A DNA stretch of 63,431 bases, taken from an uncultured Clostridia bacterium (GTDB lineage Bacteria > Bacillota > Clostridia > Christensenellales > CAG-917). Within the stretch, counting starts at the first letter, position 1. Each line of letters starts with the position of its first letter. Under the pieces are notes generated by a model, which worked only from the letters and a program-made list of their open reading frames with translations, was not told the origin of the DNA and did not search any database. The position numbers were made by a program, and so were the translations under genes. The stretch is from NCBI GenBank assembly GCA_949283145.1, contig CASDRL010000025.1, forward strand, positions 1-63,431, read 5' to 3'. Below are positions 15,827-45,777 of this stretch, piece by piece.

Positions 15827-15903
15827 TGGTGGGGTTGAATAGACTCGAACTATCGACCTCACGCTTATCAGGCGTGTGCTCTAACCAACTGAGCTACAAC
15901 CCC
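15827..15903 (-). tRNA. tRNA-Ile (anticodon GAU)
   Basis: GGGGTTGTAGCTCAGTTGGTTAGAGCACACGCCTGATAAGCGTGAGGTCGATAGTTCGAGTCTATTCAACCCCACCA. Cloverleaf with encoded CCA. Confidence 0.95.
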
Positions 15904-15925
15904 TAGTTCCCCTTTCGGGGGCTTG

Positions 15926-16001
15926 TGGTGGAGATGCACGGATTCGAACCGAGGACCTCTTGAATGCAAATCAAGCGCTCTACCAACTGAGCTACACCCC
16001 C
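15926..16001 (-). tRNA. tRNA-Ala (anticodon UGC)
   Basis: GGGGGTGTAGCTCAGTTGGTAGAGCGCTTGATTTGCATTCAAGAGGTCCTCGGTTCGAATCCGTGCATCTCCACCA. G3:U70 identity pair present. Confidence 0.95.
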
Positions 16002-17249: not shown

Positions 17250-17278
17250 TTGCGCGGATCGCCTGCGGATGTTATAAT
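17250..17278 (+). promoter_or_regulatory. Promoter of the B12-riboswitch unit
   Basis: TTGCGC-N17-TATAAT. Confidence 0.5.
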
Positions 17279-17282
17279 CTCA

Positions 17283-17445
17283 TTGCCTCGGGTGCGGCGA
17301 AAGCCGATGATCGGGAAGTCGGGTGAGAATCCCGCACAGCCCCCGCTACTGTAAGGTTGAAACGGATCCCGCCATTCCTGCCCCGGCAGGGAGAAGGCGC
17401 CGCGGCATATGCCGACCGAAGTCAGGAGACCGGCCCGAGAGTGAA
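17283..17445 (+). promoter_or_regulatory. Cobalamin riboswitch
   Basis: GGGAAGTCGGGTGAGAATCCCGCACAGCCCCCGCTACTGTAA (B12 box) plus the downstream AGTCAGGAGACCGGC. CCTTCC upstream of the GGGAGG RBS can sequester it. Confidence 0.85.
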
Positions 17446-17521
17446 TAAAGCAGTTGTTTCGGCGGGAGACGACGGCGTTTTTTTGCGCTTGCCTTCCGCG
17501 GAAAGAACGGGAGGTTTTTTC

Positions 17522-32819: not shown

Positions 32820-33254
32820 TTATTTGCCGTATTTTTCGGCGAGGTAGACGAGAGCCTCGGAGTAGCCTGCGAAGCCTTTGCCGCAGATGATCTTCTCGGC
32901 GTAGAGAGAGACAAAGGAGCGGCGGCGGAACTCTTCGCGGGAGTTGATGTCGGTGAGGTGCACTTCGACGGTGGGGAGCCCCACGGCTTTCAGGGCGTCG
33001 AGGATGGCGACGGAAGTGTGGGTGTAGGCGGCGGCGTTCAGGACGATGGCGTCGGCGGTGCCGTAGGCGCGCTGGATCTCCGTGACGATGTCCCCTTCGC
33101 TGTTGGACTGAAAGAAGGTGACTTCGACGCCGAGGTCTGCGGCGGCGCGTTCGATGCTGCCGACGAGAGCGGCGTAATCCGCTTTGCCGTAGAGGTCGGG
33201 CTCGCGGATGCCGAGCATGTTGATGTTAGGACCGTTGATGACCGAAATTTTCAT
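32820..33254 (-). CDS. aroQ: 3-dehydroquinate dehydratase, type II
   Basis: MKISVINGPNINMLGIREPDLYG...HTSVAILDAL...VEVHLTDINSREEFR. Confidence 0.95.
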   Translation of the reverse strand: MKISVINGPNINMLGIREPDLYGKADYAALVGSIERAAADLGVEVTFFQSNSEGDIVTEIQRAYGTADAIVLNAAAYTHTSVAILDALKAVGLPTVEVHLTDINSREEFRRRSFVSLYAEKIICGKGFAGYSEALVYLAEKYGK

Positions 33255-34497
33255 AGAACTTCTCCAGTATGGTTCCCGCGCACGCGGCGGGAGTGTCGTC
33301 GTTTGCGGCTTCGGCGTCGGCAAACGCTTTGTAGACGGGCATTCTCACCCGCTGCATTTTTATGAGGGTATCGAGGTCGCGGGAGAGGGGACGTCCCGCG
33401 GTGTCGAGCTTTTCCGTGTCGCGGAGGAGCAGGACGACGAATCCGTTGCCCGCGAGCGCGGCGCGGTTTTCCGGGAACATGGGCGCGCCTCCGCCCGTCG
33501 CGATGACAACGCCCGTCTCCCTCGCGCATTCGGATACGGTGAGGCGTTCCTCGCGGCGGAAATTCTCTTCGCCGCCTTCTGCAAACAGCTCGGGGACGGT
33601 CTTGCCAGTGCGGCGTTCCGTCTCCGCGTCCGTGTCGATGAGGGGGCGTCCGAGTCTTTCGGCGAGGATGGTGCCGACGGTGGTCTTGCCGGAGGAAGGC
33701 ATGCCGATGAGGACGATGTTTGTCAGGTCTTTCAGAAGAGAGCTCCATGCGCACAGGATCTCTCTGCCGTCCGGGCTGTCAGGCGAGGGCTCCGAATAAC
33801 CGTCTCCGCGGAAGATGATGCTTGCGGCTTTTGCTTGTGCCGCGAGCATGAGCAGTCCGCTGCCTGCCGGGACGCCGAGGGACAGAGCCTGCTGCACGAA
33901 GCGGGTGCGCAGAGGATTGAACACGGCGTCGAACACGCCTTTGAGCCGCGGAAAGACGGAGAGGTCGACGGGAGATGCGTCGGCGTGCGGGAACATGCCG
34001 ACGGGGGTGGTGTTGATGACTATCTCCGTCCCGGTGAGCTCGGAGACGTTGGAGTAGTTGAATTCGCCGCGTCGCGAAACGACGGTGACGGAGGCGGCGC
34101 CTTCGCGTCTTGCGAGGGCGCGCGCGGTGTGCGACGTCCCGCCGCTGCCCAGGATGACGACGTGCCGTCCCGCAAGAGAGATGCCCGCGTGGGCGAGGGC
34201 GAAGTGCATCCCGAAAAGGTCGGTGTTGTAGCCCGTGAGTTTCCCGCCGCGGTTGACGACGGTGTTGACCGCCCCGCATTCCTCGGCGGAGGGGTGCAGT
34301 TCGTCAAGAAACGGGATGACCGCGAGCTTGTGGGGGATGGTGACGTTCACGCCTTCGAATGCGCGCTCGCGGAAGAAGGCGGGGAGAGCCTCGGCGGTGA
34401 CGGGGCGCAGCTCATAATCCGCCGTGCCGTATGCCGCGTGCAGGCGGGGGGAGAAGCTGTGCCCGAGAGGATCGCCGATGAGCCCGAACCGCATCAT
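33226..34497 (-). CDS. aroE: Fused shikimate dehydrogenase / shikimate kinase
   Basis: N-terminal AroE (GDPLGHSFSPRLH, NVTIPHK, GYNTD, LGSGGTS) fused to C-terminal AroK (IGMPSSGKTTVG, IATGGG). Confidence 0.92.
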   Translation of the reverse strand: MMRFGLIGDPLGHSFSPRLHAAYGTADYELRPVTAEALPAFFRERAFEGVNVTIPHKLAVIPFLDELHPSAEECGAVNTVVNRGGKLTGYNTDLFGMHFALAHAGISLAGRHVVILGSGGTSHTARALARREGAASVTVVSRRGEFNYSNVSELTGTEIVINTTPVGMFPHADASPVDLSVFPRLKGVFDAVFNPLRTRFVQQALSLGVPAGSGLLMLAAQAKAASIIFRGDGYSEPSPDSPDGREILCAWSSLLKDLTNIVLIGMPSSGKTTVGTILAERLGRPLIDTDAETERRTGKTVPELFAEGGEENFRREERLTVSECARETGVVIATGGGAPMFPENRAALAGNGFVVLLLRDTEKLDTAGRPLSRDLDTLIKMQRVRMPVYKAFADAEAANDDTPAACAGTILEKFYENFGHQRS

Positions 34498-35639
34498 TGA
34501 GCCACCTCGTGATAGCTGCCGAGGAAGACGAACTGTTCCGTCCCCTGGTCAAGCTCTGCGATGAGGGAGAGGGTGTCGGAGTTTTCGATCTGTCCCTCGA
34601 AGTCGAAATAGAACATGAACTCGAAGTCCGTGCCGGGCAGGGGACGGGATTCCAGCTTGGTGAGGTTGAGGCCCAAGGTGGAGAACTTGTTGAGCACGCG
34701 GTTGAGTGACCCCGATTCGTGAGGGAGCGTCATCATGATGCTGATGTGATCCGCGGGGGCGAAGATCTCCAGCCGCTTGCTTATGCAGATGAAGCGGGTG
34801 TAGTTGGAGTCGTTGTCCTGGACGTTGCTGTCCACGATGCCGAGCCCGTAGAGTTCCGCGCAGTTGCGGGAGGAGATGCAGGCGATATCCGTGCGGTCGG
34901 AATTGGCGACGCTTTCGGCGGCGACTGCGGTGTTGGGACATGCCGTGATCTTTGCTGCGGGGAAGTTCTTGGCAAGATACGCGGAGCACTGACCTATGGC
35001 TTGCTCGTGGGAGAAGATCTCCTTGATGTCGCCGCGTTTGATTCCCTTTTTTGCGAGCAGGTGATGGCTGACTTTCAGCTTGATGCTGCGCACGATGTAG
35101 AAATTGTGCTTTTTCATAAGGTCGTACACCGCGTTGACGCTGCCCACCGCGCTGTTCTCGATGGGCAGGACGCCGTAGTCGCACAGCCCCTTTTCCACAG
35201 CCTGGAACACACCTTCGAAATTGCGGAAGAATGTGATGTCAGCGATCTCGAACAGTTTGTCCGCGGCGATGGAAGAGTAGCTCCCGTCCACGCCCTGGCA
35301 GGCGACGGACGCGGAGACTGGGAAATAGCGCTTGCCTTCCATAAGCACCCGTCTCAGCTCGTCGGAGAGGGGTGTGACCGGCGCGACAAGACGGCGCTGG
35401 TAGGCGCGGGCTGTCTCCATAATTGTCTCAAACACGCGTTTAAGATATATTTTTTGCTCGTCATCTGCCTGTTTTGTCACTTTCGCGATGACTTTCTTTT
35501 CGCGCGCGGGGTCAAAGACGGGGGCGTGAGTTTTCGCCTTTTCTTCGCCTATCCTGCGCACCGTGTCCTGTCTTTCAAGGTAGAGCGCGGCGATCTTATC
35601 GTCGATCTCGTCGATCCTGTTCCGAAGTTCTTCGATCAT
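34494..35639 (-). CDS. pheA: Bifunctional chorismate mutase / prephenate dehydratase
   Basis: N-terminal CM (LRNRIDEIDDKIAALYLERQ), then PDT and ACT domains (TRFICIS, ESRP). Confidence 0.92.
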   Translation of the reverse strand: MIEELRNRIDEIDDKIAALYLERQDTVRRIGEEKAKTHAPVFDPAREKKVIAKVTKQADDEQKIYLKRVFETIMETARAYQRRLVAPVTPLSDELRRVLMEGKRYFPVSASVACQGVDGSYSSIAADKLFEIADITFFRNFEGVFQAVEKGLCDYGVLPIENSAVGSVNAVYDLMKKHNFYIVRSIKLKVSHHLLAKKGIKRGDIKEIFSHEQAIGQCSAYLAKNFPAAKITACPNTAVAAESVANSDRTDIACISSRNCAELYGLGIVDSNVQDNDSNYTRFICISKRLEIFAPADHISIMMTLPHESGSLNRVLNKFSTLGLNLTKLESRPLPGTDFEFMFYFDFEGQIENSDTLSLIAELDQGTEQFVFLGSYHEVAQ

Positions 35640-35647
35640 ATTTCACC

Positions 35648-36745
35648 TCAAATTTTGTTTTCCGTTTCGTGTTCGGCAAGGAGCACCGCGTCGAGAAGAG
35701 CGAGCGCCGCCGCGGCTTCCACTGCCGCCACCGCTCTCGGCACCACCGTCGCATCGTGTCTGCCTTTGACGGAGATCTCCGTCTCCGTCATGGTCTCAAG
35801 ATCCACCGTCCGCTGCGGGAGGGAGATGGAGGGGGTGGGGCGGAATGCCGCCCGGAAGGTCACGGGCATCCCGTTGGAGATGCCGCCGTTGATGCCGCCG
35901 GAGTGGTTGGTGAGGGTGATCACCTTCCCATCTCTCACCACGAAGGGGTCGTTCGACTCGCTGCCGCGCATCCCCGCGATGTCAAAGCCTGCGCCGAATT
36001 CCACGCCTTTGACGGCGGGCACGGCATATACCGCCGCGGAGATCTTGCTCTCCAGCCCTTCGAAGAGCGCGTCGCCGAGCCCTGCCGGGACGCCGAACGC
36101 GACGCATTCCACCACGCCGCCCGCGCTGTCCCCCCTTTCCTGCGCCGCTTTCACCGCAGCCGCCGCTTCCTCGACGTTGGAGAGCATGGGGAGGGGGCGC
36201 TCCAGGCAGGCAGCGATGTCCTCGTATGTGAGCTCGCCGTCCGCGTAACTTCTGCCTTTCACTCCGCCGAGCTCGCCGATGTAAGCCGCGACGCGGATGC
36301 CGCGCCTTTCGAGGAGCGCTTCCGCCACGCCGCCCATTGCGACGAGGGGAGCGGTCATCCTGCCCGAGAATCTGCCGCCGCCCGACTGCGCCGCCGCCGC
36401 GCCGTCCTTCACCCACGCACAGTAGTCCGCGTGAGAGGGGCGGGGAGTGCGGGCATAAGAGTAGTCCGAGGGGCGGATGTTGCCGTTGCGGATGCGGACT
36501 GTGAGCGCGCCGTCAATGCGCATCCTGCCGTCCCCGAGGTCGGTGCAGCCCTCCCACATCGCCTCGTCGTCCTCGCGGCGGGGAGTGGAGAAGAGATACT
36601 TCCCGCTCTTTCTGCGTGCGGCGAGCGCGGCGACTTTTGCGACATCGAATGTCTCGCCCACGGGCAAACCCGCGAGGGTCGCGCCTATCTCGGCGGAATG
36701 TGACTCGCCGAATATGTCGATGTCAAGGATGTCAAACGGTCTCAT
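35648..36745 (-). CDS. aroC: Chorismate synthase
   Basis: FGESHS, RPSHAD, GRHD signature segments. Confidence 0.93.
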   Translation of the reverse strand: MRPFDILDIDIFGESHSAEIGATLAGLPVGETFDVAKVAALAARRKSGKYLFSTPRREDDEAMWEGCTDLGDGRMRIDGALTVRIRNGNIRPSDYSYARTPRPSHADYCAWVKDGAAAAQSGGGRFSGRMTAPLVAMGGVAEALLERRGIRVAAYIGELGGVKGRSYADGELTYEDIAACLERPLPMLSNVEEAAAAVKAAQERGDSAGGVVECVAFGVPAGLGDALFEGLESKISAAVYAVPAVKGVEFGAGFDIAGMRGSESNDPFVVRDGKVITLTNHSGGINGGISNGMPVTFRAAFRPTPSISLPQRTVDLETMTETEISVKGRHDATVVPRAVAAVEAAAALALLDAVLLAEHETENKI

Positions 36746-38018
36746 GCGTTTTGCCTCCGATGAGTTCGAGATCGCGGAAGAATGTGGGATAGGATTTCGC
36801 CGCCGCTTCCGCGTCCGTCACCTCTCCGCCCGCAAGCAGTCCCGCCACGGCGGCGGACATCACCATGCGGTGATCTCCGAAGCCGCTTGCCGCGAATTTC
36901 TTTATTTTGCCACCGCGGATGAGCAGGAAGTTGCCGCGGATCTCGGCGTCGATGCCCATTGCGGACAGGTTGTGCACGATGGCGGCGAGCCTGTCGCTCT
37001 CTTTGTCGCGGAGGCGCGCAACCCCCGTCATCACGCTCTCACCCTCCGCCGCAGCCATTAGCACGGAGAGCACGGGGGCGAGGTCCGGGATGTCGTCCAC
37101 ATCCGCGCTCACGGCGCGGAGAGGCGCCGCTTTCACACGGCAGCGGTCTTTTCCCGGGAAAGAGACTTCCGCGCCCATTTCTGTAAGAATGTCGGCGATC
37201 CTTTTGTCACGCTGTGCGCTGCCGGGGTCGAGCCCCGTCACCGTCACGTCGCCCGCGAGTGCGCCCGCCGCCAGCATGAACGCCGCGGACGACCAGTCGC
37301 CTTCCGCGCGCACCGTGCCGGGGGAGTGCAGCCTGCCCGCAGGGATGAGATAGCCCTCCGCGGTCTTTTTGACGCGCTTGCCGAAGAGGGCGAGGGCGTC
37401 GAGGGTCATCTGCGTATATCCTTCCGAGACGGCGTTTCCCGTCGTTTTCAGCACGCATTCGCTGCCGAGCGAGGCGAGCGCGAAGAGCATCCCGCTGACA
37501 TATTGTGAGCTCACCGACGCGTCCACCGCGAATTCTCCGCCCGCAAGTTTCCCGCCCGTGGTGAGAGGGAGAGAGGGCGCCGACGCGCCGTCCGTGTCGG
37601 GATGGGTTGCGGGAGAGGAAACGCTCGCTCCGCCGCGCGTGAGGGCGTCCGCGAGGGTGCCGAGCGGACGGAAGGGCAGTCTGCCTTCCCCTGTGAAAGT
37701 CGCGTCCGCGCCCAGCGCGCAGGCGACGGGCAGCAGGAAGCGCAGGGTGGAGCCGCTCTCGCCCGCGTTCAGCACCGCGCCCTTTTTGACTTTGCTTATC
37801 GGCGTCACCTCGAAGCCGTCCTCGGTGCGCGCGATCGTTGCCCCCAGCGCCGCGAGGCACTCCGCCGTTCTCTCGATGTCGCGGGAGAGGGCGGGGCAGA
37901 TAACCTTTGAGGGCGCGTCCGCAAGCGCCGCCGCGATGAGCAGCCTGTGCGCGTGGGACTTGGAGGGAACGGCTTCGACCGTGCCCGAGACGCGGGAGGG
38001 GAACACCGTCATTTTCAT
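36732..38018 (-). CDS. aroA: 3-phosphoshikimate 1-carboxyvinyltransferase (EPSP synthase)
   Basis: VPSKSHAHRLLIAAALA, LNAGESGSTLRFL, DHRMVMSAAVAGL. Confidence 0.93.
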   Translation of the reverse strand: MKMTVFPSRVSGTVEAVPSKSHAHRLLIAAALADAPSKVICPALSRDIERTAECLAALGATIARTEDGFEVTPISKVKKGAVLNAGESGSTLRFLLPVACALGADATFTGEGRLPFRPLGTLADALTRGGASVSSPATHPDTDGASAPSLPLTTGGKLAGGEFAVDASVSSQYVSGMLFALASLGSECVLKTTGNAVSEGYTQMTLDALALFGKRVKKTAEGYLIPAGRLHSPGTVRAEGDWSSAAFMLAAGALAGDVTVTGLDPGSAQRDKRIADILTEMGAEVSFPGKDRCRVKAAPLRAVSADVDDIPDLAPVLSVLMAAAEGESVMTGVARLRDKESDRLAAIVHNLSAMGIDAEIRGNFLLIRGGKIKKFAASGFGDHRMVMSAAVAGLLAGGEVTDAEAAAKSYPTFFRDLELIGGKTHETV

Positions 38019-39040
38019 AAGAGGAACTCCTCCAACTCGCCGAGGGTCATGGGCATCACCTCGCAGCGTCCTATGCCGCGTATGACTACGGCGTTTACCT
38101 TGCCCGCCGCGATCTTTTTATCGTGGGCGATGTGCTCCGCCACCGCGCGGATGGAGTAGGGGCACTCCGGGAATCCGTACTTTTGCAGGAGGGAGGAGAG
38201 GGCGATGTAGTCCTCTTTGGGCATGATGCCCGCGCTCACGCACGCGCGCGCCATCACTTTAATGCCCATTGCCACGCACACGCCGTGCGGGAAGCCGAGC
38301 GCGCTCTCCGTCTCGATGGCGTGCCCGACGGTGTGCCCGAGGTTGAGCAGCCGCCTGAGTCCCCTCTCGTTCTCGTCCTCTTCGACGATGCGGCGCTTGT
38401 AGTCGATGCAGAGGTCGACCAGGCGTTCGAGGTCGTTTTCCGCGCCCGCCTGCATGATGTCATATATCTCCCCGCCCGCGAGCACGGCATATTTCACCGC
38501 CTCGCCGAGCCCGCATTTCCACTCCGCCTTGGGGAGGGTGGAGAGCAGATCGAGGTCGCACACCACCGCCTTCGGGGGATAGATCCTGCCCGCGAGGTTC
38601 TTGCCCGCTTTGAGGTCGACCGCGGTCTTGCCGCCCACGGAAGAGTCGATGGCGGCGAGCAGAGTGGTGGGCACCTGCACATAGTCTATCCCGCGCATAT
38701 ACGTGCCCGCGACGAATCCCGCAAGGTCCCCCACGACGCCGCCGCCGAGCGCGACGATCACGCCGTCGCGCGGCATGTCGTCCGCGGCGAGCTGCTCGAG
38801 GAGCTCTCCCGCAAGCGTCCAGTTTTTGCTCTGTTCGCCGTGCGGGATGACGATGCGTTTTGTGCCATCCGGGAGGACGGCGAGCAGCTTTTCAAGGTGC
38901 AGAGGAGCGACATTGTCGTCGGTGATCACAGTGACTTTCCGTCCCGCCGTGATGCCCGCTGCGGACGCGGTCTCGCCGATGACGCCGTGCCCCGTGATGA
39001 CGGGATAGCTCCCCGTGGATGTGCGGATGAAGGTCTTCAT
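38015..39040 (-). CDS. aroB: 3-dehydroquinate synthase
   Basis: GGGVVGDLAGFVAGTYMRGIDYVQVPTTLLAAIDSSVGGKTAV, LNLGHTVGHAIE. AGGAGG RBS before ATG 39040. Confidence 0.93.
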   Translation of the reverse strand: MKTFIRTSTGSYPVITGHGVIGETASAAGITAGRKVTVITDDNVAPLHLEKLLAVLPDGTKRIVIPHGEQSKNWTLAGELLEQLAADDMPRDGVIVALGGGVVGDLAGFVAGTYMRGIDYVQVPTTLLAAIDSSVGGKTAVDLKAGKNLAGRIYPPKAVVCDLDLLSTLPKAEWKCGLGEAVKYAVLAGGEIYDIMQAGAENDLERLVDLCIDYKRRIVEEDENERGLRRLLNLGHTVGHAIETESALGFPHGVCVAMGIKVMARACVSAGIMPKEDYIALSSLLQKYGFPECPYSIRAVAEHIAHDKKIAAGKVNAVVIRGIGRCEVMPMTLGELEEFLL

Positions 39041-39108
39041 GGTGCCTCCTGCGTTTGCGTTCTCATTTTGTTCCTCGTTTGTATTTTGACAAAACAGAGG
39101 GTTTATCG

Positions 39109-39996
39109 TCACATTTCCGGGAGCTCATCCCCGCTCAATGCGTTTTGCAGTTTCTTTTGCCTGTCCTTCTCCACCGCGAGTTTGGTGCGGTTGCCTGCGT
39201 CAAGCAGCGAGAAGAGCCGCTCGTCGTCGCCGCTGTCGAGAGCGTCGGCGTATTCCGTCATGCGCGCCGCCATCTCTCTCACTTCGCGGGAGAGGTTGTC
39301 CGCGTTATCGCGCATGAGTTCCGTCCACATCTTCGCGTTCATGCGGGCGACCCTGGTCATGTCGCGGAAGCTGCCCGCCGAATAGCCGTAATGACGGTCG
39401 GCGGAAGCGGAGCGGACATAGGCGGAGGAGACGATGTGCGCCAGCTGCGAGGTATAGGCGATCATCTCATCGTGGGTCTCCGCGTCCGTGATGACCACAC
39501 CTTCCGCACCCACGGAGACATAGAGGCGTTTGAGGTCGGCGAGCGCTTCCAGCGTCGCGGCGACGGGGACGAGCAGTACGCTCGCGCCGTCATAAAGCCC
39601 CGCGGTGGAGTGCGCCACTCCGCTGAACTCTCTGCCCGCCATCGGGTGACCGCCGATGAAATTGACGTCGGGACGGGTGGGGGCAAGGCGTTTCATAAGC
39701 GCGACGACGGGGCGCTTCACGCCCGCGATGTCGGTGACCGTCGCGCCGTTTTTCAAGAGGGGAAGGAAGCGCGCGAGGATGCTCTCCGCGGCGGAGGGCA
39801 CCACCGCGAGGACGAGAATGTCCAGCTCTTTCGCGTTTTCGTCCGTCAGCTCCTCGTGATAGGCGCGGAGCAGGGAGCCTTTGAGCATCGCTTCGCGGTC
39901 GGTGTCGAGGGCGAAGACGGTGTGTTCCGTCCTTGCCGCGAGCGCCCGTCCGAGCGAACCGCCCATGAGACCGAGACCGACAATGCCTATCTTCAT
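39109..39996 (-). CDS. tyrA: Prephenate dehydrogenase
   Basis: MKIGIVGLGLMGGSLG Rossmann fold, GGHPMAG. Confidence 0.9.
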   Translation of the reverse strand: MKIGIVGLGLMGGSLGRALAARTEHTVFALDTDREAMLKGSLLRAYHEELTDENAKELDILVLAVVPSAAESILARFLPLLKNGATVTDIAGVKRPVVALMKRLAPTRPDVNFIGGHPMAGREFSGVAHSTAGLYDGASVLLVPVAATLEALADLKRLYVSVGAEGVVITDAETHDEMIAYTSQLAHIVSSAYVRSASADRHYGYSAGSFRDMTRVARMNAKMWTELMRDNADNLSREVREMAARMTEYADALDSGDDERLFSLLDAGNRTKLAVEKDRQKKLQNALSGDELPEM

Positions 39997-41009
39997 TTGT
40001 CGCGCTCCTTTCCGCACACGGTGAGCAGGACGTCGATGCGTCTGACGAGGTCGTCGAACTGCTCGGGACGGAGAGACTGCGCGCCGTCGGAGAGGGCGTG
40101 CAGCGGGTCGTTGTGCACCTCGATCTCCAGCCCGTCCGCGCCCGCGCCCACGGAGGCGAGGGAGAGGGGCAGCACGAGTTTCGCGCGTCCCGATGCGTGG
40201 CTGGGGTCCACGAGGATGGGCAGGTGGGTGAGCTCACGCAGCACGGGTATTGCAGAAAGATCGAGGGTGTTGCGGGTGTACGGCTCGAAGGTGCGGATGC
40301 CGCGCTCGCAGAGGATGATGTCCGTGTTGCCCTCGGACATGATGTATTCCGCGCTCATCAGCCATTCCTCGATGGTCGCCGCCATGCCGCGTTTCAGAAG
40401 GATGGGCTTGTGTGTCTTGCCCAGCTCTTTCAGAAGCTCGAAGTTCTGCATGTTCCTCGCGCCCACCTGGATGAGGTCGACGTCCTCGAAGAGGGGGAGA
40501 TGGCGGATGTCGAGGATCTCGGTGCAGACGGGCATCCCCGTCTCCTTTTTGGCGAGGGAGAGCAGTTTCATCCCTTCCGCGCGGAGACCTTGGAAGGCGT
40601 AGGGGGAAGTGCGGGGCTTGAACGCGCCGCCGCGGAGCACTGTCGCGCCCGCCGCCTTCACCGCCTTGGCGACGGCGACGATCTGATCCTCGCTCTCGAC
40701 GGAACAGGGGCCGGCTATTAGCTGGAAATGTCCTCCGCCGAAGAGGTGCCCGCCCACGTCCACAATGGTGTCCTCGGGGTGGAACTTGCGGTTGGCGTTC
40801 TTGAAGGGCTCCTGGATGCGCTTGACGCTCTCCACGATGTCGAGGGAACGGATGAGATCCTCGTCCACGACGGAAGTGTCGCCGATGAGTCCCATCACGG
40901 TGGAATTGTCGCCCTTGCTCATATGGATGTCCAGCCCCAGTCCCTTTATCCACTTGACGAGGTTGTCCATCTGTTTTTTGTCCGGGTTGTTTTTGATGAC
41001 GATGATCAT
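39993..41009 (-). CDS. aroF: 3-deoxy-7-phosphoheptulonate (DAHP) synthase, class I-beta with an N-terminal regulatory domain
   Basis: IAGPCSVES, LRGGAFKPRTSPYAFQGL, DPSH. The N-terminal 70 residues are ferredoxin-like/ACT-like. Confidence 0.93.
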   Translation of the reverse strand: MIIVIKNNPDKKQMDNLVKWIKGLGLDIHMSKGDNSTVMGLIGDTSVVDEDLIRSLDIVESVKRIQEPFKNANRKFHPEDTIVDVGGHLFGGGHFQLIAGPCSVESEDQIVAVAKAVKAAGATVLRGGAFKPRTSPYAFQGLRAEGMKLLSLAKKETGMPVCTEILDIRHLPLFEDVDLIQVGARNMQNFELLKELGKTHKPILLKRGMAATIEEWLMSAEYIMSEGNTDIILCERGIRTFEPYTRNTLDLSAIPVLRELTHLPILVDPSHASGRAKLVLPLSLASVGAGADGLEIEVHNDPLHALSDGAQSLRPEQFDDLVRRIDVLLTVCGKERDK

Positions 41010-41040
41010 TTGGATGTCTTCTCCTGTTCCGCGTGCCGCT

Positions 41041-41071
41041 CAAACAAAAAGACCGCCGGTATGGCGGTCTT
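41041..41071 (-). terminator. Attenuator terminator in the aro leader
   Basis: AAGACCGCC-AUACC-GGCGGUCUU + UUUGUUUG on the minus strand, 32 nt upstream of the aroF ATG. Confidence 0.7.
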
Positions 41072-41094
41072 GATCGTCGGGTGTCCGAAAAATC

Positions 41095-41181
41095 TTATCC
41101 GCGCATACCGAAAGAGGGGCTCTCAAAATAAAAGCCCTTAAAGTAGAAGTATGCGTAGCTGTTTGTGCGGACGTTTTTCAT
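41095..41181 (-). CDS. Aromatic-rich leader peptide of the aro supraoperon (28 aa)
   Basis: MKNVRTNSYAYFYFKGFYFESPSFGMRG: 4 Tyr + 5 Phe. Its last codons (GGUAUGCGCGGA UAA) form the 5' half of an 11-bp antiterminator with CCGCCAUACCG of the terminator. Frame cross-checked against ORF 41178..41507. Confidence 0.6.
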   Translation of the reverse strand: MKNVRTNSYAYFYFKGFYFESPSFGMRG

Positions 41182-41195
41182 AGTTCTTCACCGAT

Positions 41196-41224
41196 AATAT
41201 AAAACTCATCGCCGGCGTTGTCAA
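41196..41224 (-). promoter_or_regulatory. Promoter of the aro supraoperon
   Basis: TTGACA-N17-TATATT on the minus strand. The predicted TSS is only about 8 nt before the leader ATG. Confidence 0.55.
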
Positions 41225-41254
41225 CTTGTTTGGGCAACTTGTGCCGCACATAAT

Positions 41255-42754
41255 TTACTTTTTTCCGTCCTCTTTCGCGATCTCGACGGGCAGGGGATCC
41301 TCCGCGACGGAGAGATTGAGCACGCTGATGGCGTCCGAGATGCTCTTTTCCATCGCGAGCCTGCCGTAGGCGTCCACTTCGCGCTTGTTCTTTTCGCCGT
41401 GAGTGAGACATCCCGCGCCGCCGATGCAGCCGTCCACGCACGCCATGCCTTCGATGAAATTGGCGTCCAGCACCCCTTTGGACTTTTTGAGCAGCGCCGT
41501 CCTGCACGCCTCGATGCCGTCGCAGGTGACGGGTTTATATTCAAAGTCCGTCTCGCCCTGTTCCTTGATAGCCTGCGCCACCGCGTCCGTGATGCCGCCG
41601 CTCCGCGCGAAGATCCTGCCGAAATAGGACGCATTGTCGAGCGCGCTCTCCGAGAGGTGCTCGAGGTCGATGTCGCGGGAATCGAAGAGGGCTTGCAGCT
41701 CCTCGAATGTGATGACGGAGTCGATGTACGGGCGCACTTCGGGCTTCTGGAACTCCATCTTCTTCGCTGTGCAGGGTCCGATGAACACCACGCGGCAGGG
41801 AGAGGAAGTGCTCTTGATATATTTAGCGATCGTCGCCGCGGGAGAGAGATTCGCCGAAATGTGCGGCGCGATGTCGGGGAACTGTTTCTTGATGTAATCC
41901 ACGAACGCGGGGCAGCATGAAGAGGTGAGAAAACCCTTCTCTTTGAGCTCTTCCGCTTCTTTGTATGCCACCATGTCCGCGCCGAGAGCCGCTTCCACCA
42001 CATTGAAGAAGCCGAGCTTGCGGATGCCCGTCACCACCTGCCCGAGTTTTGCATAGGTGAACTGGCTGGAGACCGAGGGCGCGACGACGGCGTACATCTT
42101 GTAGTCGGAATTGTCATTGCTCTTTTTGATCATGTCAATGACGTCGAGGATGTAGCTCTTGTCGATGATGGCGCCGAAGGGACATTGATATACGCACGCG
42201 CCGCACGCGATGCACTTGTCGTTGTCAATGCTCGCCGCCTTGTTCTCGTTCATGGAGATGGCTTTGATCTTGCACGCGTATTCGCAGGGGCGGCGGCGGG
42301 AGACGATGGCGGTGTAGGGGCACACCTTGGCGCATTGTCCGCACTCCACGCACAGGTTCTTGTCGATGTGCGCCTTCTGCTGATGGTCGAAGGAGATCGC
42401 GTTGCGCCTGCAAACGTCTTCGCAGCGGTGCGCGAGACAGCCGCGGCAGGCGTTGGTCACTTCATAGCCGCCGGCAGGGCAGTCGTCGCACGCGATGTCG
42501 ATGACCTCGATGACGTTGGGGTTGCTGCGGTCGCCGCCCATTGCGAGCCTGACGCGCTCCGCGATGATGGCGCGCTCTTTATAGACGCAGCAGCGCATGG
42601 TCGGCACATTGCCGGGGATGATGACCTTGGGGATGTCCGTGATGCGTTCCAGCAGATCCCCTCTCCATGCGCCGCGCGCGACTTCGCGCAGCACCTTGTA
42701 CTGCAAATATTGGACCTTGGTGTCGAATGTTCTGCGTTTTTTGATGTCGTCCAT
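41255..42754 (-). CDS. hydA: [FeFe] hydrogenase, catalytic type (HydA-like) with N-terminal Fe-S domains
   Basis: H-cluster motifs FLTSSCCPAF, IGPCTAKKME, EGMACVDGCIGG, plus two ferredoxin-type CxxCxxCxxxCP motifs. AAGGAAG RBS before ATG 42754. Confidence 0.85.
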   Translation of the reverse strand: MDDIKKRRTFDTKVQYLQYKVLREVARGAWRGDLLERITDIPKVIIPGNVPTMRCCVYKERAIIAERVRLAMGGDRSNPNVIEVIDIACDDCPAGGYEVTNACRGCLAHRCEDVCRRNAISFDHQQKAHIDKNLCVECGQCAKVCPYTAIVSRRRPCEYACKIKAISMNENKAASIDNDKCIACGACVYQCPFGAIIDKSYILDVIDMIKKSNDNSDYKMYAVVAPSVSSQFTYAKLGQVVTGIRKLGFFNVVEAALGADMVAYKEAEELKEKGFLTSSCCPAFVDYIKKQFPDIAPHISANLSPAATIAKYIKSTSSPCRVVFIGPCTAKKMEFQKPEVRPYIDSVITFEELQALFDSRDIDLEHLSESALDNASYFGRIFARSGGITDAVAQAIKEQGETDFEYKPVTCDGIEACRTALLKKSKGVLDANFIEGMACVDGCIGGAGCLTHGEKNKREVDAYGRLAMEKSISDAISVLNLSVAEDPLPVEIAKEDGKK

Positions 42755-42907
42755 AGTTCGGGCTTTCTTCCTTAGATCGAGTCTTTTGCGCCGCAAACGG
42801 CGGTTTATCGGTGGGATCTTGTTGTTAAAGATCCGTTTAGGTCAATTTGTCGTCTTGTTCTGCCGCGCTTTTTGCCGCGCCGCTTTCCGTGCGGGCGCTT
42901 TTTGCGG

Positions 42908-44071
42908 TCAGTCGTAGTTGAGTTCCACCTGCTTTCCCGCCAGGCGCAGGTTCGCCGCGATGCTTTCCACCAGTTTCAGCTTCATCGTCGTGTCGATGGG
43001 CAGCCCCTGATGCGCCGCGTTGATGCTCTGTCCCACAAAGAAGGTGACGTGCGTGGCGTACTCGAAGAGCATGTTGGCGAGCAGAGAGGCGCCGTCCTTC
43101 TTCTCCGAGTGCTTGGGGGTGAGGTCGGAGGTGGACAGCCAGCGCTCGCTGAGTTCCAGCAATTTGCGCAGGGTCAGCACCCCTTCCGTCGTGAGGTCGA
43201 TGCCCTTGATGTATCCGATGGGCGGGACGTCCTTGTCGGGGAAGTCGAAGGACGCGGACACCTTTTCGCCGAGGTGTCGTGCCACGATCTGCGAGCTCGT
43301 GCCGCCGCACACCACCTTTTTCCCCTCGCCGCCGAGAAAACGGGAGATGTAGAAGTCGTCCTGATCCTTTTCCACGGGGGGACCCACCATGATGCGGACG
43401 GGGCAGTATTCGCGGGCTCTCACCACCGCCACCGTGGTGTCGTCGCCGGGCTTGCCCATATAAAGGTCGTTGCACGCGCCCGCGAGCATGCACGCCACGC
43501 CGCGTGCGGACATCCCCTTTCTGAAGCTTTTGTCCAGATATTCTTTGACGTCCTTTCTCAGCCACCCGAAGTTGAGCAGCATCCCGATGCCGGCGTGTAT
43601 GACGCCGTCGGACATCAGCACTATGTAGTCGTCGGGTTTGAGTTCCAGCCGGGTGCCGTACACTTTCTTGCCCAGGATGTCGCGCTCGACGCGCTCGAAG
43701 TCCAGGCATTTGCCGTCGCGGATGAGGATGGCTTCCGGGTTGTCGAACTCGAAGAGCCAGCCCTTGCCGTCCTCGCCGAGATGCACCACCGAGAAGGTCG
43801 CATACGCCACGCCGCGCACCTTGCATACGGGCAGCGTCTGCACCACCGTCTCCACGCACTCGTCCATGCTCATCTCGTTGGAGACCATCGTGCACAGGAT
43901 CTTGGAAGTCAGCGTCGCGAGGATGTTCGCCTTGACGCCGCTTCCCAGCCCGTCGGCAAGCACCAGAGTGGTGTGCGCCCCGTCCGAGATGCACTCCACC
44001 TTGTCGCCGCACAGTTCCTCCCCCTTCTTGTTGAGAGAGGTGTAGCCTTGTTCGAGAAAGAGCTTGTCCAT
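42908..44071 (-). CDS. SpoIIE/PP2C-family serine phosphatase
   Basis: CGDKVEC...LADGLGSGVKANILA...MSDGVIHAG...GDDTTVAVV. Start overlaps the hydS stop by 1 nt. Confidence 0.85.
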   Translation of the reverse strand: MDKLFLEQGYTSLNKKGEELCGDKVECISDGAHTTLVLADGLGSGVKANILATLTSKILCTMVSNEMSMDECVETVVQTLPVCKVRGVAYATFSVVHLGEDGKGWLFEFDNPEAILIRDGKCLDFERVERDILGKKVYGTRLELKPDDYIVLMSDGVIHAGIGMLLNFGWLRKDVKEYLDKSFRKGMSARGVACMLAGACNDLYMGKPGDDTTVAVVRAREYCPVRIMVGPPVEKDQDDFYISRFLGGEGKKVVCGGTSSQIVARHLGEKVSASFDFPDKDVPPIGYIKGIDLTTEGVLTLRKLLELSERWLSTSDLTPKHSEKKDGASLLANMLFEYATHVTFFVGQSINAAHQGLPIDTTMKLKLVESIAANLRLAGKQVELNYD

Positions 44072-45777
44072 CAGTTGTCCTCGTCCTCGCTGCGGGGTGC
44101 GAGCGTCTCTTTGAGCTTGCTCAGAGCCACCTTGGTCTCCGCGGTCGTTTCGCCGAGGAGGGAAGCGATCTCCTGCGCGACGCGCATCTGTTTTTTGATG
44201 ACTTCATCCGTGGTGGCGAGCGTTTTCAGCTTGACGGCGTTGAGTTTCTCGTCGTATTCCACGCTCTCCGTGATGTCCTTCATGACGCCGAAGAGCACCT
44301 TGTGCTCCTGCAGCAGGACGATAGAGAGCTCGATATACTTTTTCGTCCTGTTCACATACACCCGCTTTTTGCTGACATTCCTGCCCTTGGTCGCCGCGGC
44401 GATGAACTCCTCGGCGTCGAAGCATTCGAAGGCGAGCATGCCCTTGACGTCGTGCTCGGTGATGCCCAGCAGCTTCATCGCGCGGGCGTTGATGTCCATG
44501 ATCCTGAAATCGTCGGACATCAGGACGATGCCGTTCGGAGTGTTCTGGATGATCTCGTTGCTCATGGACTCGGCGCGGCTGCGCATGTAGGGCAGACACA
44601 TCTCGATGTCGGCATAGCCGTTGAGCACCGCGATCGCCTTTTCGCGGCAGGTGGAGTAGCCGCACGCTCCGCAGTTGAGTTCGTCCTCGGGGGAATTCTT
44701 CCCCGTCTTGGCGAGCACCGCGCGGATGTCGTTTTCGCTCGGGACAAAGTCGTCGAGGATGATGCGGGGGTGCTTTTCGGTCAGATCCGCGCCTTCCGCG
44801 TCCGTCCTGACGGGAGCCTCACCTTTTGCGGCATACTTGCGCACGTTCTCGTTGCTCTTGATGGAGCCGCCTTTCGCGGGCAGACTGCACGGGCCGCCTA
44901 TGCAGGCGTGCTCGCAGCAGTTGAGTTCGAGAAAGAGCCCGGAGAGCGTGCCGATCTCGCGGAGCACTTCCGAGCAGCGATCAACGCCGTCAACGGCAAC
45001 GTATTCGTAGCCTTCGGGCAGGGTGTCGAAACTCTTGATGATGCCGCGCGGAATGGGATAATATCTCGCTTTGAGGCTGCCGCCGTCAGCGGCTTGTTTC
45101 GCCTCTGTTTCGCTCAATCTGATGTTTTTCTGTTCAAAAACGGCGCTCAACTCCTCGAATGTGAGGACACCGTCGATGATCCCGCTTTCCGCCGCTTCGC
45201 GTTTTTTGGCGATGCACGGTCCGATGAACACGATCGCCGTTTCGGGATCGCGGCGCTTTATCATACGCGCGTGCGCCACCATGGGAGAGGGGACGGGCGC
45301 GAGATACCGCAATGCTTCGGGATAGTAGATCTGGATCATGCGGTTGACTGCGGGACATGCCGAGGTGATGAAGTTTTTGAACTCACCCGTCGAGAGCAGT
45401 TTCGCATATTCTTCCGTGACCGCTTTTGCGCCTATCGCGGTCTCTTCGACGGCGGCAAAGCCGAGGGAGAGGAGCGCCTCTTTCATGACCTCGAAGTCCT
45501 GAGTGTCAAAGGAAGAGACGAATGAGGGTGCGAGGCTTGCGGTCACTTTGCGGCCGCTTGCGAGCAGAGCCAGGACGTCTTCCGTTTCGCTGTGCACCTG
45601 CTTGGCGTTCTGCGGGCAGACCAGAGTGCATCTGCCGCAGAGGATGCACCTCTGCTCGATGATCTTAGCCTGATGGTTTTCGTAACGGATCGCTTTTACG
45701 GGACACTCGCGGAGGCATTTGAAGCAGTCTTTGCACTTCGCGTTTTTGAAATCCAGATAGGGCGTTGCGGTTGCCAT
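44071..45777 (-). CDS. hydS: Sensory-type [FeFe] hydrogenase with C-terminal PAS domain (HydS-like)
   Basis: 2x[4Fe-4S] N-terminus. H-domain motifs ITSACPAV (relay Cys replaced by Ala), IGPCIAKKRE, LNCCEHACIGGPC. Extra CGACGYSTC cluster, then a PAS-like domain and a coiled coil. Confidence 0.82.
   Translation of the reverse strand: MATATPYLDFKNAKCKDCFKCLRECPVKAIRYENHQAKIIEQRCILCGRCTLVCPQNAKQVHSETEDVLALLASGRKVTASLAPSFVSSFDTQDFEVMKEALLSLGFAAVEETAIGAKAVTEEYAKLLSTGEFKNFITSACPAVNRMIQIYYPEALRYLAPVPSPMVAHARMIKRRDPETAIVFIGPCIAKKREAAESGIIDGVLTFEELSAVFEQKNIRLSETEAKQAADGGSLKARYYPIPRGIIKSFDTLPEGYEYVAVDGVDRCSEVLREIGTLSGLFLELNCCEHACIGGPCSLPAKGGSIKSNENVRKYAAKGEAPVRTDAEGADLTEKHPRIILDDFVPSENDIRAVLAKTGKNSPEDELNCGACGYSTCREKAIAVLNGYADIEMCLPYMRSRAESMSNEIIQNTPNGIVLMSDDFRIMDINARAMKLLGITEHDVKGMLAFECFDAEEFIAAATKGRNVSKKRVYVNRTKKYIELSIVLLQEHKVLFGVMKDITESVEYDEKLNAVKLKTLATTDEVIKKQMRVAQEIASLLGETTAETKVALSKLKETLAPRSEDEDN

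Follow-up and report, generated by a model that had tools for sequence, protein, structure and literature searches.

A putative tyrosine- and phenylalanine-rich leader-peptide attenuator upstream of the aro operon in an uncultured Clostridia bacterium

The eight-gene aroF-tyrA-aroB-aroA-aroC-pheA-aroE/K-aroQ operon on contig CASDRL010000025.1, from an uncultured Clostridia bacterium, is very probably preceded by a classical ribosome-mediated (leader-peptide) transcription attenuator, a reading whose support is computational. The whole stretch of DNA analysed, positions 1 to 63,431 of the contig, is referred to here as the window. Along its minus strand, a near-consensus promoter is followed by a 28-codon open reading frame (ORF) rich in Tyr and Phe codons, an intrinsic terminator and then aroF (Table 1). 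Computation identified each of these parts, three mutually exclusive RNA helices with their energies, and conservation of the architecture among relatives. The sequence and structure features that define the class were found: an ORF with a ribosome-binding site after a promoter, a cluster of cognate codons, a terminator, a helix between regions 2 and 3 of the leader (2:3), a helix between regions 1 and 2 (1:2), and conservation in related genomes. The signal sensed is best explained as the charging of tRNA-Tyr and/or tRNA-Phe, and the operon would then respond to the supply of Phe and Tyr.

The leader peptide and the competing helices

The promoter is of the sigma-70 type and matches the consensus at 11 of 12 positions. 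The leader ORF that follows it encodes MKNVRTNSYAYFYFKGFYFESPSFGMRG, with Tyr at codons 9, 11, 13 and 18 and Phe at codons 12, 14, 17, 19 and 24. Nine of the 28 residues are aromatic, and eight of these fall within codons 9-19, where the run Y-A-Y-F-Y-F-K-G-F-Y-F is specified by four Tyr codons (three UAC, one UAU) and four Phe codons (three UUU, one UUC). A Shine-Dalgarno (SD)-like element, GGUGA, is located 7 nt before the ATG and is presumably complementary to the 3' end of 16S rRNA (…UCACCUCCU). When the 245-nt intergenic region was subjected to dinucleotide shuffling, an ATG ORF with six aromatic codons in eight arose in one of 5000 shuffles. The 63-kb window contains 963 small ATG ORFs when both strands are counted, and of these the leader alone reached even five in eight. 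An earlier reading of the window from its letters alone (the sequence-only reading) had reported the promoter, the 28-codon ORF, its nine Tyr/Phe residues clustered at codons 9-19 and the terminator, and all were located where it had placed them.

The intrinsic terminator is formed by regions 3 and 4 (3:4) and consists of a GC-rich 9-bp stem with a 5-nt loop, AAGACCGCC-AUACC-GGCGGUCUU, followed by UUUGUUUG. Its energy is -15.9 kcal/mol and it ends 31 nt before the aroF ATG at 41009. Region 3, CCGCCAUACCG, runs from the inner 5' arm of this terminator across the loop to the first base on the 3' side of the stem. It is also able to pair with region 2, CGGUAUGCGCGG, which begins at the third base of leader codon 24 and ends at the second base of codon 28. 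The resulting 2:3 antiterminator contains 11 canonical base pairs with C41103 bulged, and its intramolecular energy of -15.9 kcal/mol is the same as that of the terminator. Compared with shuffles of the upstream segment, the antiterminator duplex had a z-score of -4.75, and as a partner for region 2 the window's own terminator arm was better than the arms of all 62 other loci in the comparison described below. The sequence-only reading had described this helix correctly, including the single bulged C. It had also located the pairing strand in the last codons, which is right, and had run it directly into the UAA, which is not: region 2 ends 1 nt before the stop codon, since the last codon is GGA and an A precedes the UAA.

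The partners of region 2 are region 3 or region 1. In the unconstrained minimum free energy (MFE) fold, the core of region 1, CGCAUACU, which is located inside codons 9-12, was paired with GGUAUGCG (41109-41102), that is, with the antiterminator strand itself. The 1:2 duplex had an energy of -14.3 kcal/mol (z = -2.2), of which the 8-bp core alone gave -7.8 kcal/mol, and UCCGC (41171-41167), an upstream extension of region 1, is able to pair with GCGGA. The z-score of the entire leader fold was -4.5. The 2:3/3:4 switch of the sequence-only reading is supported. That reading overlooked region 1, with which the element has the full four-region design. The MFE and centroid folds also contained an internal 9-bp hairpin, GGGCUUUUA-UUU-UGAGAGCCC, which spans codons 16-22 and has the second Phe-Tyr-Phe cluster within and close to its loop. 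This hairpin may serve as an RNA polymerase pause hairpin.

The effect of a ribosome on the leader fold was examined by constrained folding, a check that the sequence-only reading had suggested, with a 28-nt ribosome footprint masked at chosen codons. The fold obtained in the absence of a ribosome contained the 1:2 helix and the terminator. With the ribosomal A site at Tyr9, Tyr11, Tyr13 or Phe14, the MFE structure was the 2:3 antiterminator and the terminator was gone. The terminator was again the MFE structure once the A site reached Phe24 or the stop codon. Both outcomes are those that the proposed switch predicts.

In the proposed mechanism, transcription would start from the promoter and the 28-codon leader would be translated at once. 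While charged tRNA-Tyr and tRNA-Phe were plentiful, the ribosome would reach the UAA and cover region 2, so that region 3 would pair with region 4, the terminator would form and RNA polymerase would halt before aroF. If either charged tRNA were scarce, the ribosome would stall in codons 9-19, on region 1, and leave region 2 free. Region 2 would then pair with region 3 once the latter had been transcribed, no terminator would form and the operon would be read through. Were translation absent, region 1 would pair with region 2 and the terminator would form. That ribosomes translate the leader and stall at the run codons in the living cell is inferred, as are the sign and magnitude of the response.

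Conservation of the leader among related aroF loci

Related loci were collected by a scan with the AroF protein, with one genome retained per species. This gave 80 loci, among more than 600 matched, with 63-74% AroF identity. Nearly all 80 are from Clostridia metagenome-assembled genomes (MAGs) of the Oscillospiraceae, Acutalibacteraceae, Christensenellaceae, Lachnospiraceae, Anaerovoracaceae and Eubacteriaceae; a cultured carrier in the set is Angelakisella massiliensis. The upstream regions tested numbered 78, comprising 77 related loci with enough upstream sequence and the window itself. A leader was scored when a small ATG ORF contained at least five Tyr/Phe codons in eight, and shuffles, reverse complements and the other two reading frames served as controls.

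Leader ORFs were detected at 59 of the 78 loci, compared with 46 of 1560 shuffles (3%) and none of the 78 reverse complements. Examples from relatives are MKKVFNYYFYNFYFFRPY, MKLNGFYFYGYYFFEPIS and MKRNIFAAEYFYFYFINKS. When the triplet run was sought in any frame it was found at 67 loci, and at 59 of these it was in frame with an SD and ATG without an intervening stop, compared with one locus for each of the other two frames. This argues strongly for translation of the run rather than for an RNA-only motif. The leaders had a median length of 26 codons (range 14-47). The median distance from the leader stop to the terminator was 37 nt, and a median of 34 nt separated the terminator from aroF. 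At 53 of 63 loci, the leader was directly preceded by a promoter that matched the consensus at 10 or more of 12 positions. In the 63 leaders of the window and 62 related loci, Phe accounted for 18.7% of residues, Tyr for 16.3% and Trp for 0.2%.

Leader lengths and helix sequences were too divergent for a trustworthy alignment, and conservation of the helices was therefore scored by per-locus duplex energies against shuffle and cross-locus controls, and not by alignment covariation or a covariance model. Pairing of the segment after the run with the locus's own terminator 5' arm had a mean z of -1.9 (n=62). The own arm ranked within the best 10% of all loci's arms at 44% of loci, a comparison based on rank statistics only. 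The same predicted 2:3 pairing is thus formed by different sequences at different loci, which is covariation in the broad sense. The 1:2 helix had a mean z of -1.15 in relatives and usually abutted the first aromatic codons. Two peptide motifs recur among the leaders, and both correspond to RNA strands of the helices: FAAEY is encoded by the strand UUUGCAGCUGAAUA of helix 1:2, and the C-terminal LCC by the UGCUGCA strand of helix 2:3.

Variation within the species was seen on three same-species contigs, which carry three single-nucleotide differences from the window in the leader. The first changes Phe codon 24 from UUC to UUU; it is synonymous and turns a 2:3 pair into a G-U wobble, leaving the helix unbroken. 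The second changes Asn7 to Ser, outside the aromatic run. The third is an A-to-G change in the terminator loop, by which a 2:3 pair again becomes a G-U wobble and is not broken.

The sequence-only reading had stated that relatives which kept the hairpins and lost the ORF or its aromatic codons would speak against an attenuator. The opposite was observed. Hairpin sequences vary, and what is kept is the plan, namely a small ORF with SD and ATG and a Tyr/Phe run, a terminator, and an antiterminator strand complementary to the locus's own terminator arm.

The leader ORF and terminator were not found at L032, L043, L049, L057 and L072, which lie on contigs labelled Treponema, Spirochaetales/Spirochaetia and Bacteroidaceae. 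The AroF identity of these loci (63-68%) was similar to that of the others. Either this type of aroF has crossed from one phylum to another and its leader has not, or the labels of the bins are wrong.

The share of Tyr among the aromatic codons of the leader differed with the gene after aroF. It averaged 0.48 where tyrA directly follows (n=45) and 0.28 where aroB or pheA follows (n=8), with a Mann-Whitney p of 2.6e-5 that ignores phylogeny, some of the loci being close relatives. Several loci with nothing recognisable after aroF had almost pure Tyr leaders, such as GYYYYYVL (L035) and RYAYYYVLY (L018).

Points against the attenuator and rival explanations

Several observations weigh against the attenuator as proposed. 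In the constrained folds, a ribosome at Phe12 still gave the terminator at equilibrium, as did a ribosome at Phe17, Tyr18 or Phe19, where region 1 had re-emerged behind the ribosome. Read-through upon a stall in the second cluster would depend on the steric argument that a helix does not close tightly around a ribosome. Among the relatives, the antiterminator z-score was weak or positive at some loci, and at some the antiterminator strand started more than 12 nt past the stop codon, indicating that the geometry is not uniform. The 5' untranslated region (UTR) of the window's leader is also predicted to be very short. The predicted transcription start is at about 41189-41188, and if the usual seventh base after the -10 box is used, the UTR is GAAGAACU, or 7-8 nt. 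Such a start cuts off the GGUGA element, which may be partly absent from the mRNA. At 14 nt, the distance from the -10 box to the ATG in the window is the shortest among the 53 loci with good promoters. Finally, the aroR attenuator of Corynebacterium glutamicum, as summarised in PMC11802643, was read through under Phe limitation and responded to Phe, not Tyr, the supply of which was without effect. Dual Tyr/Phe sensing therefore cannot be assumed here.

The distance from the -10 box to the ATG was mostly 19-35 nt across the 53 loci, and about 30 nt in most loci beyond the window's closest relatives. In those closest relatives (L001-L007) it was 17-20 nt, and the leader SD began right at the predicted start; one of them, L002, has the same GGTGA as the window, but 20 nt from its -10 box. 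From these sequences, a compact promoter-SD-ATG layout seems to be typical of the window's clade, with the window as an extreme case. The SD would be included in the mRNA if transcription started 2-3 nt further upstream, or by read-through from the upstream hydrogenase-like gene. In the ilvB attenuator of C. glutamicum, the leader peptide is reported to be made without a ribosome-binding site (Morbach et al. 2000, as cited in PMC4046766). The sequence-only reading had cautioned that a 5' UTR of about 8 nt would make translation of the leader nearly leaderless. This caveat stands, and is softened by the closest relatives, which also place the SD at the start of the transcript.

An arrest peptide could stall the ribosome at the same place. 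The aromatic peptide in the exit tunnel would then sense free Phe/Tyr or another small molecule, as TnaC does when it stalls with tryptophan, and the downstream RNA switch would be indifferent to the cause of stalling. The conserved Tyr/Phe richness of the peptide is compatible with such a sensor. However, in a typical arrest peptide specific residues are conserved at a set distance from the point of stalling, and beyond the Tyr/Phe run the leaders share neither length (14-47 codons) nor stop spacing nor a fixed motif; where FAAEY and LCC recur, they fall on the strands that form helices 1:2 and 2:3 in the RNA. The polarity is also wrong, since a stall under abundant amino acid would turn a biosynthetic operon on. 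We consider this explanation very unlikely.

Just as improbable, in our estimate, is an attenuator under protein or ligand control, in which the small ORF is not translated and a TRAP-like protein or a riboswitch-like fold reads the UAY/UUY triplets. Firmicutes often use TRAP or T-boxes for aromatic genes (PMC2494555), and with so short a predicted 5' UTR in the window, translation is somewhat in doubt. Against this, a stop-free run in frame with an SD and ATG, with its marked preference for one frame among the 67 loci, would be needless for an RNA-only motif. Moreover, no T-box or other Rfam family was detected in the leader or in 20 related leaders, and a T-box would not fit in a leader of about 150 nt.

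Least probable of all is coincidence, with the ORF present by chance and the hairpin acting as the terminator of the upstream hydrogenase-like gene or as a constitutive partial terminator: that gene is oriented in the same direction as aroF, with no further terminator between the two, but a strong promoter and the ORF intervene, the ORF-plus-terminator unit accompanies aroF even though the upstream neighbour is on the opposite strand at about 19 of 55 loci (by a crude ORF call), and the controls (shuffles, reverse complements and alternative frames) exclude chance. The promoter between the two genes, and upstream neighbours that vary in orientation among loci, were the grounds for rejecting a plain terminator of the upstream gene.

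Known systems, genomic setting and significance

A T-box leader comprises a specifier loop and a T-box sequence and is about 200-300 nt long. No T-box or riboswitch was matched by an Rfam model in 40500-41800, even at E-values up to 10. At gathering score, no Rfam 15 family matched the leader, in a search of the whole window, or the 20 related leaders. In a permissive scan around the element, Phe_leader scored 20.4 bits (gathering score 55) and Trp_leader 19.2 bits (gathering score 41), and these matches reflected the generic terminator hairpin only. The leader is not a member of RF01859 (Phe_leader) or RF00513 (Trp_leader). We found no description of a Tyr/Phe leader of aroF in Clostridia in the literature, the coverage of which was incomplete, so that absence is not proven.

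The design is that of the E. coli pheL-pheA and trpL-trpEDCBA attenuators. They have in common with the window the helices 1:2, 2:3 and 3:4, regulatory codons that overlap or adjoin region 1, a stop codon beside region 2, and an intrinsic terminator that precedes the first structural gene. In contrast to them, the leader described here would read two amino acids and precedes an operon that covers the whole shikimate pathway and both terminal branches.

In gene context and amino-acid specificity, the closest counterpart among the systems compared is the C. glutamicum aroR leader, which was first predicted in PMC4046766 and attenuates aroF (Neshat et al. 2014, as summarised in PMC11802643). It too is located directly before aroF, the 3-deoxy-D-arabino-heptulosonate 7-phosphate (DAHP) synthase gene, contains Phe and Tyr codons (Phe-Tyr-Phe) and acts by ribosome-mediated attenuation. 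It differs in belonging to the Actinobacteria, in preceding another operon, and in having three regulatory codons compared with 8-9 here and 5-8 per 8-codon stretch in relatives. An independent origin seems likely from this comparison, which covers gene context and amino-acid specificity only.

Within a Firmicutes-related lineage, uORFC-13-1 is a motif with 24 representatives from Acholeplasma and unassigned environmental sequences (Brewer et al. 2021, PMC8632094). Like the element in the window, it has a predicted upstream ORF with a promoter, a ribosome-binding site, Phe codons and an adjoining intrinsic terminator, and it is found exclusively upstream of aroF. Its U-run encodes at least one Phe and no Tyr/Phe alternation is mentioned; the comparison covers gene context and amino-acid specificity. 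Regular leader-peptide attenuation in place of T-boxes is also documented in Firmicutes for the His leader of hisS/hisZ in bacilli (PMC2965389) and for the Leu-rich ilvBNC attenuator peptide of Staphylococcus aureus (PMC5794164), which differ from the present leader in amino acid, operon and taxon (Bacilli). The sequence-only reading had called such attenuators uncommon in Firmicutes. In the lineage studied here the design is not rare: among the 78 loci tested, the attenuator architecture is the majority state.

Neighbouring genes of the operon overlap or are separated by at most 8 nt, and aroF has an SD of its own, AGGAG, at 41025-41021. According to Pfam scans, the eight genes encode the whole shikimate pathway and the Tyr and Phe branches, and there are no trp genes. 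A Tyr/Phe-rich leader without Trp matches this operon because tyrA and pheA are present and trp genes are not, which agrees with the statement of the sequence-only reading that the leader is tuned to the two amino acids the operon makes.

Table 1. Positions of the leader elements, the aro operon genes and the genes upstream of them in the window.
Feature	Position	Strand	Remarks
Sigma-70-type promoter	41196..41224	-	TTGACA (41224-41219), N17, TATATT (41201-41196)
SD-like element GGUGA	41188..41192	-	
Leader peptide ORF	41095..41181	-	ATG 41181 to UAA 41095, 28 codons plus stop
Regulatory codon run	41125..41157	-	Codons 9-19
Region 1, anti-antiterminator core	41148..41155	-	
Internal hairpin	41117..41137	-	
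Region 2, antiterminator 5' strand	41099..41110	-	
Region 3	41057..41067	-	
Intrinsic terminator (regions 3:4)	41041..41071	-	Hairpin 41071-41049, tail 41048-41041
aroF	39993..41009	-	DAHP synthase type I-beta with N-terminal ferredoxin-like regulatory domain; PF00793 3e-76, PF18152 3e-21
tyrA	39109-40017	-	Pfam scan
aroB	38015-39112	-	Pfam scan
aroA	36732-38018	-	Pfam scan
aroC	35648-36745	-	Pfam scan
pheA	34494-35639	-	Chorismate mutase, prephenate dehydratase and ACT; Pfam scan
aroE/aroK fusion	33226-34497	-	Pfam scan
aroQ	32820 to ~33250	-	Pfam scan
Terminator-like hairpin after aroQ	32795-32770	-	Terminator scan
[FeFe]-hydrogenase-like protein with PAS domain	44071-45777	-	Upstream cluster
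SpoIIE/PP2C-type phosphatase	42908-44071	-	Upstream cluster
Second hydrogenase-like protein with ferredoxin domains	41255-42796	-	Upstream cluster; directly upstream of the aro promoter

A three-gene cluster immediately precedes the aro promoter, at 41255-45777 on the minus strand, and looks like a sensory-hydrogenase signalling module. Elsewhere in the window, a cobalamin riboswitch was detected at 17273-17452 on the plus strand (97 bits, compared with a gathering score of 31.5). A tRNA-Ile(GAT) adjoins a tRNA-Ala(TGC) at 15827-16001 on the minus strand. Such pairs are typically located in the spacers of rRNA operons, but the window gave no rRNA hit.

The mechanism itself is a known one, and the element in the window probably belongs to a new, widespread family of leader-peptide attenuators. 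We give slightly less than even weight to a fuller proposal, in which a large and previously undescribed family of dual Tyr/Phe attenuators would be the main control of shikimate/Phe/Tyr operons throughout the Clostridia of gut and rumen (Oscillospirales, Christensenellales, Lachnospirales and others), the Tyr:Phe ratio of the leader would track the terminal-branch gene after aroF, and translation in the window's clade would be near-leaderless, with the SD at the extreme 5' end or missing.

Known principles of attenuation are unchanged by these results, and the mechanism will not surprise a specialist. What makes the element worth recording is a comparative signal that is both broad and clear, together with the apparent specificity for Tyr and Phe at once, and it is easily tested. 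For annotation of MAGs the results give a simple rule: upstream of aroF, look for a terminator preceded by a small ORF that has an SD, an ATG and a run of Tyr/Phe codons. The relatives provide dozens of natural variants in leader length, Tyr:Phe ratio, stop position and 5' UTR length, with which the reading of two amino acids could be studied. In gut and rumen Clostridia, T-boxes and TRAP are usually assumed and aroF leaders have been left unannotated; for these mostly uncultured bacteria, the attenuator offers a concrete and testable regulatory mechanism for the synthesis of aromatic amino acids.

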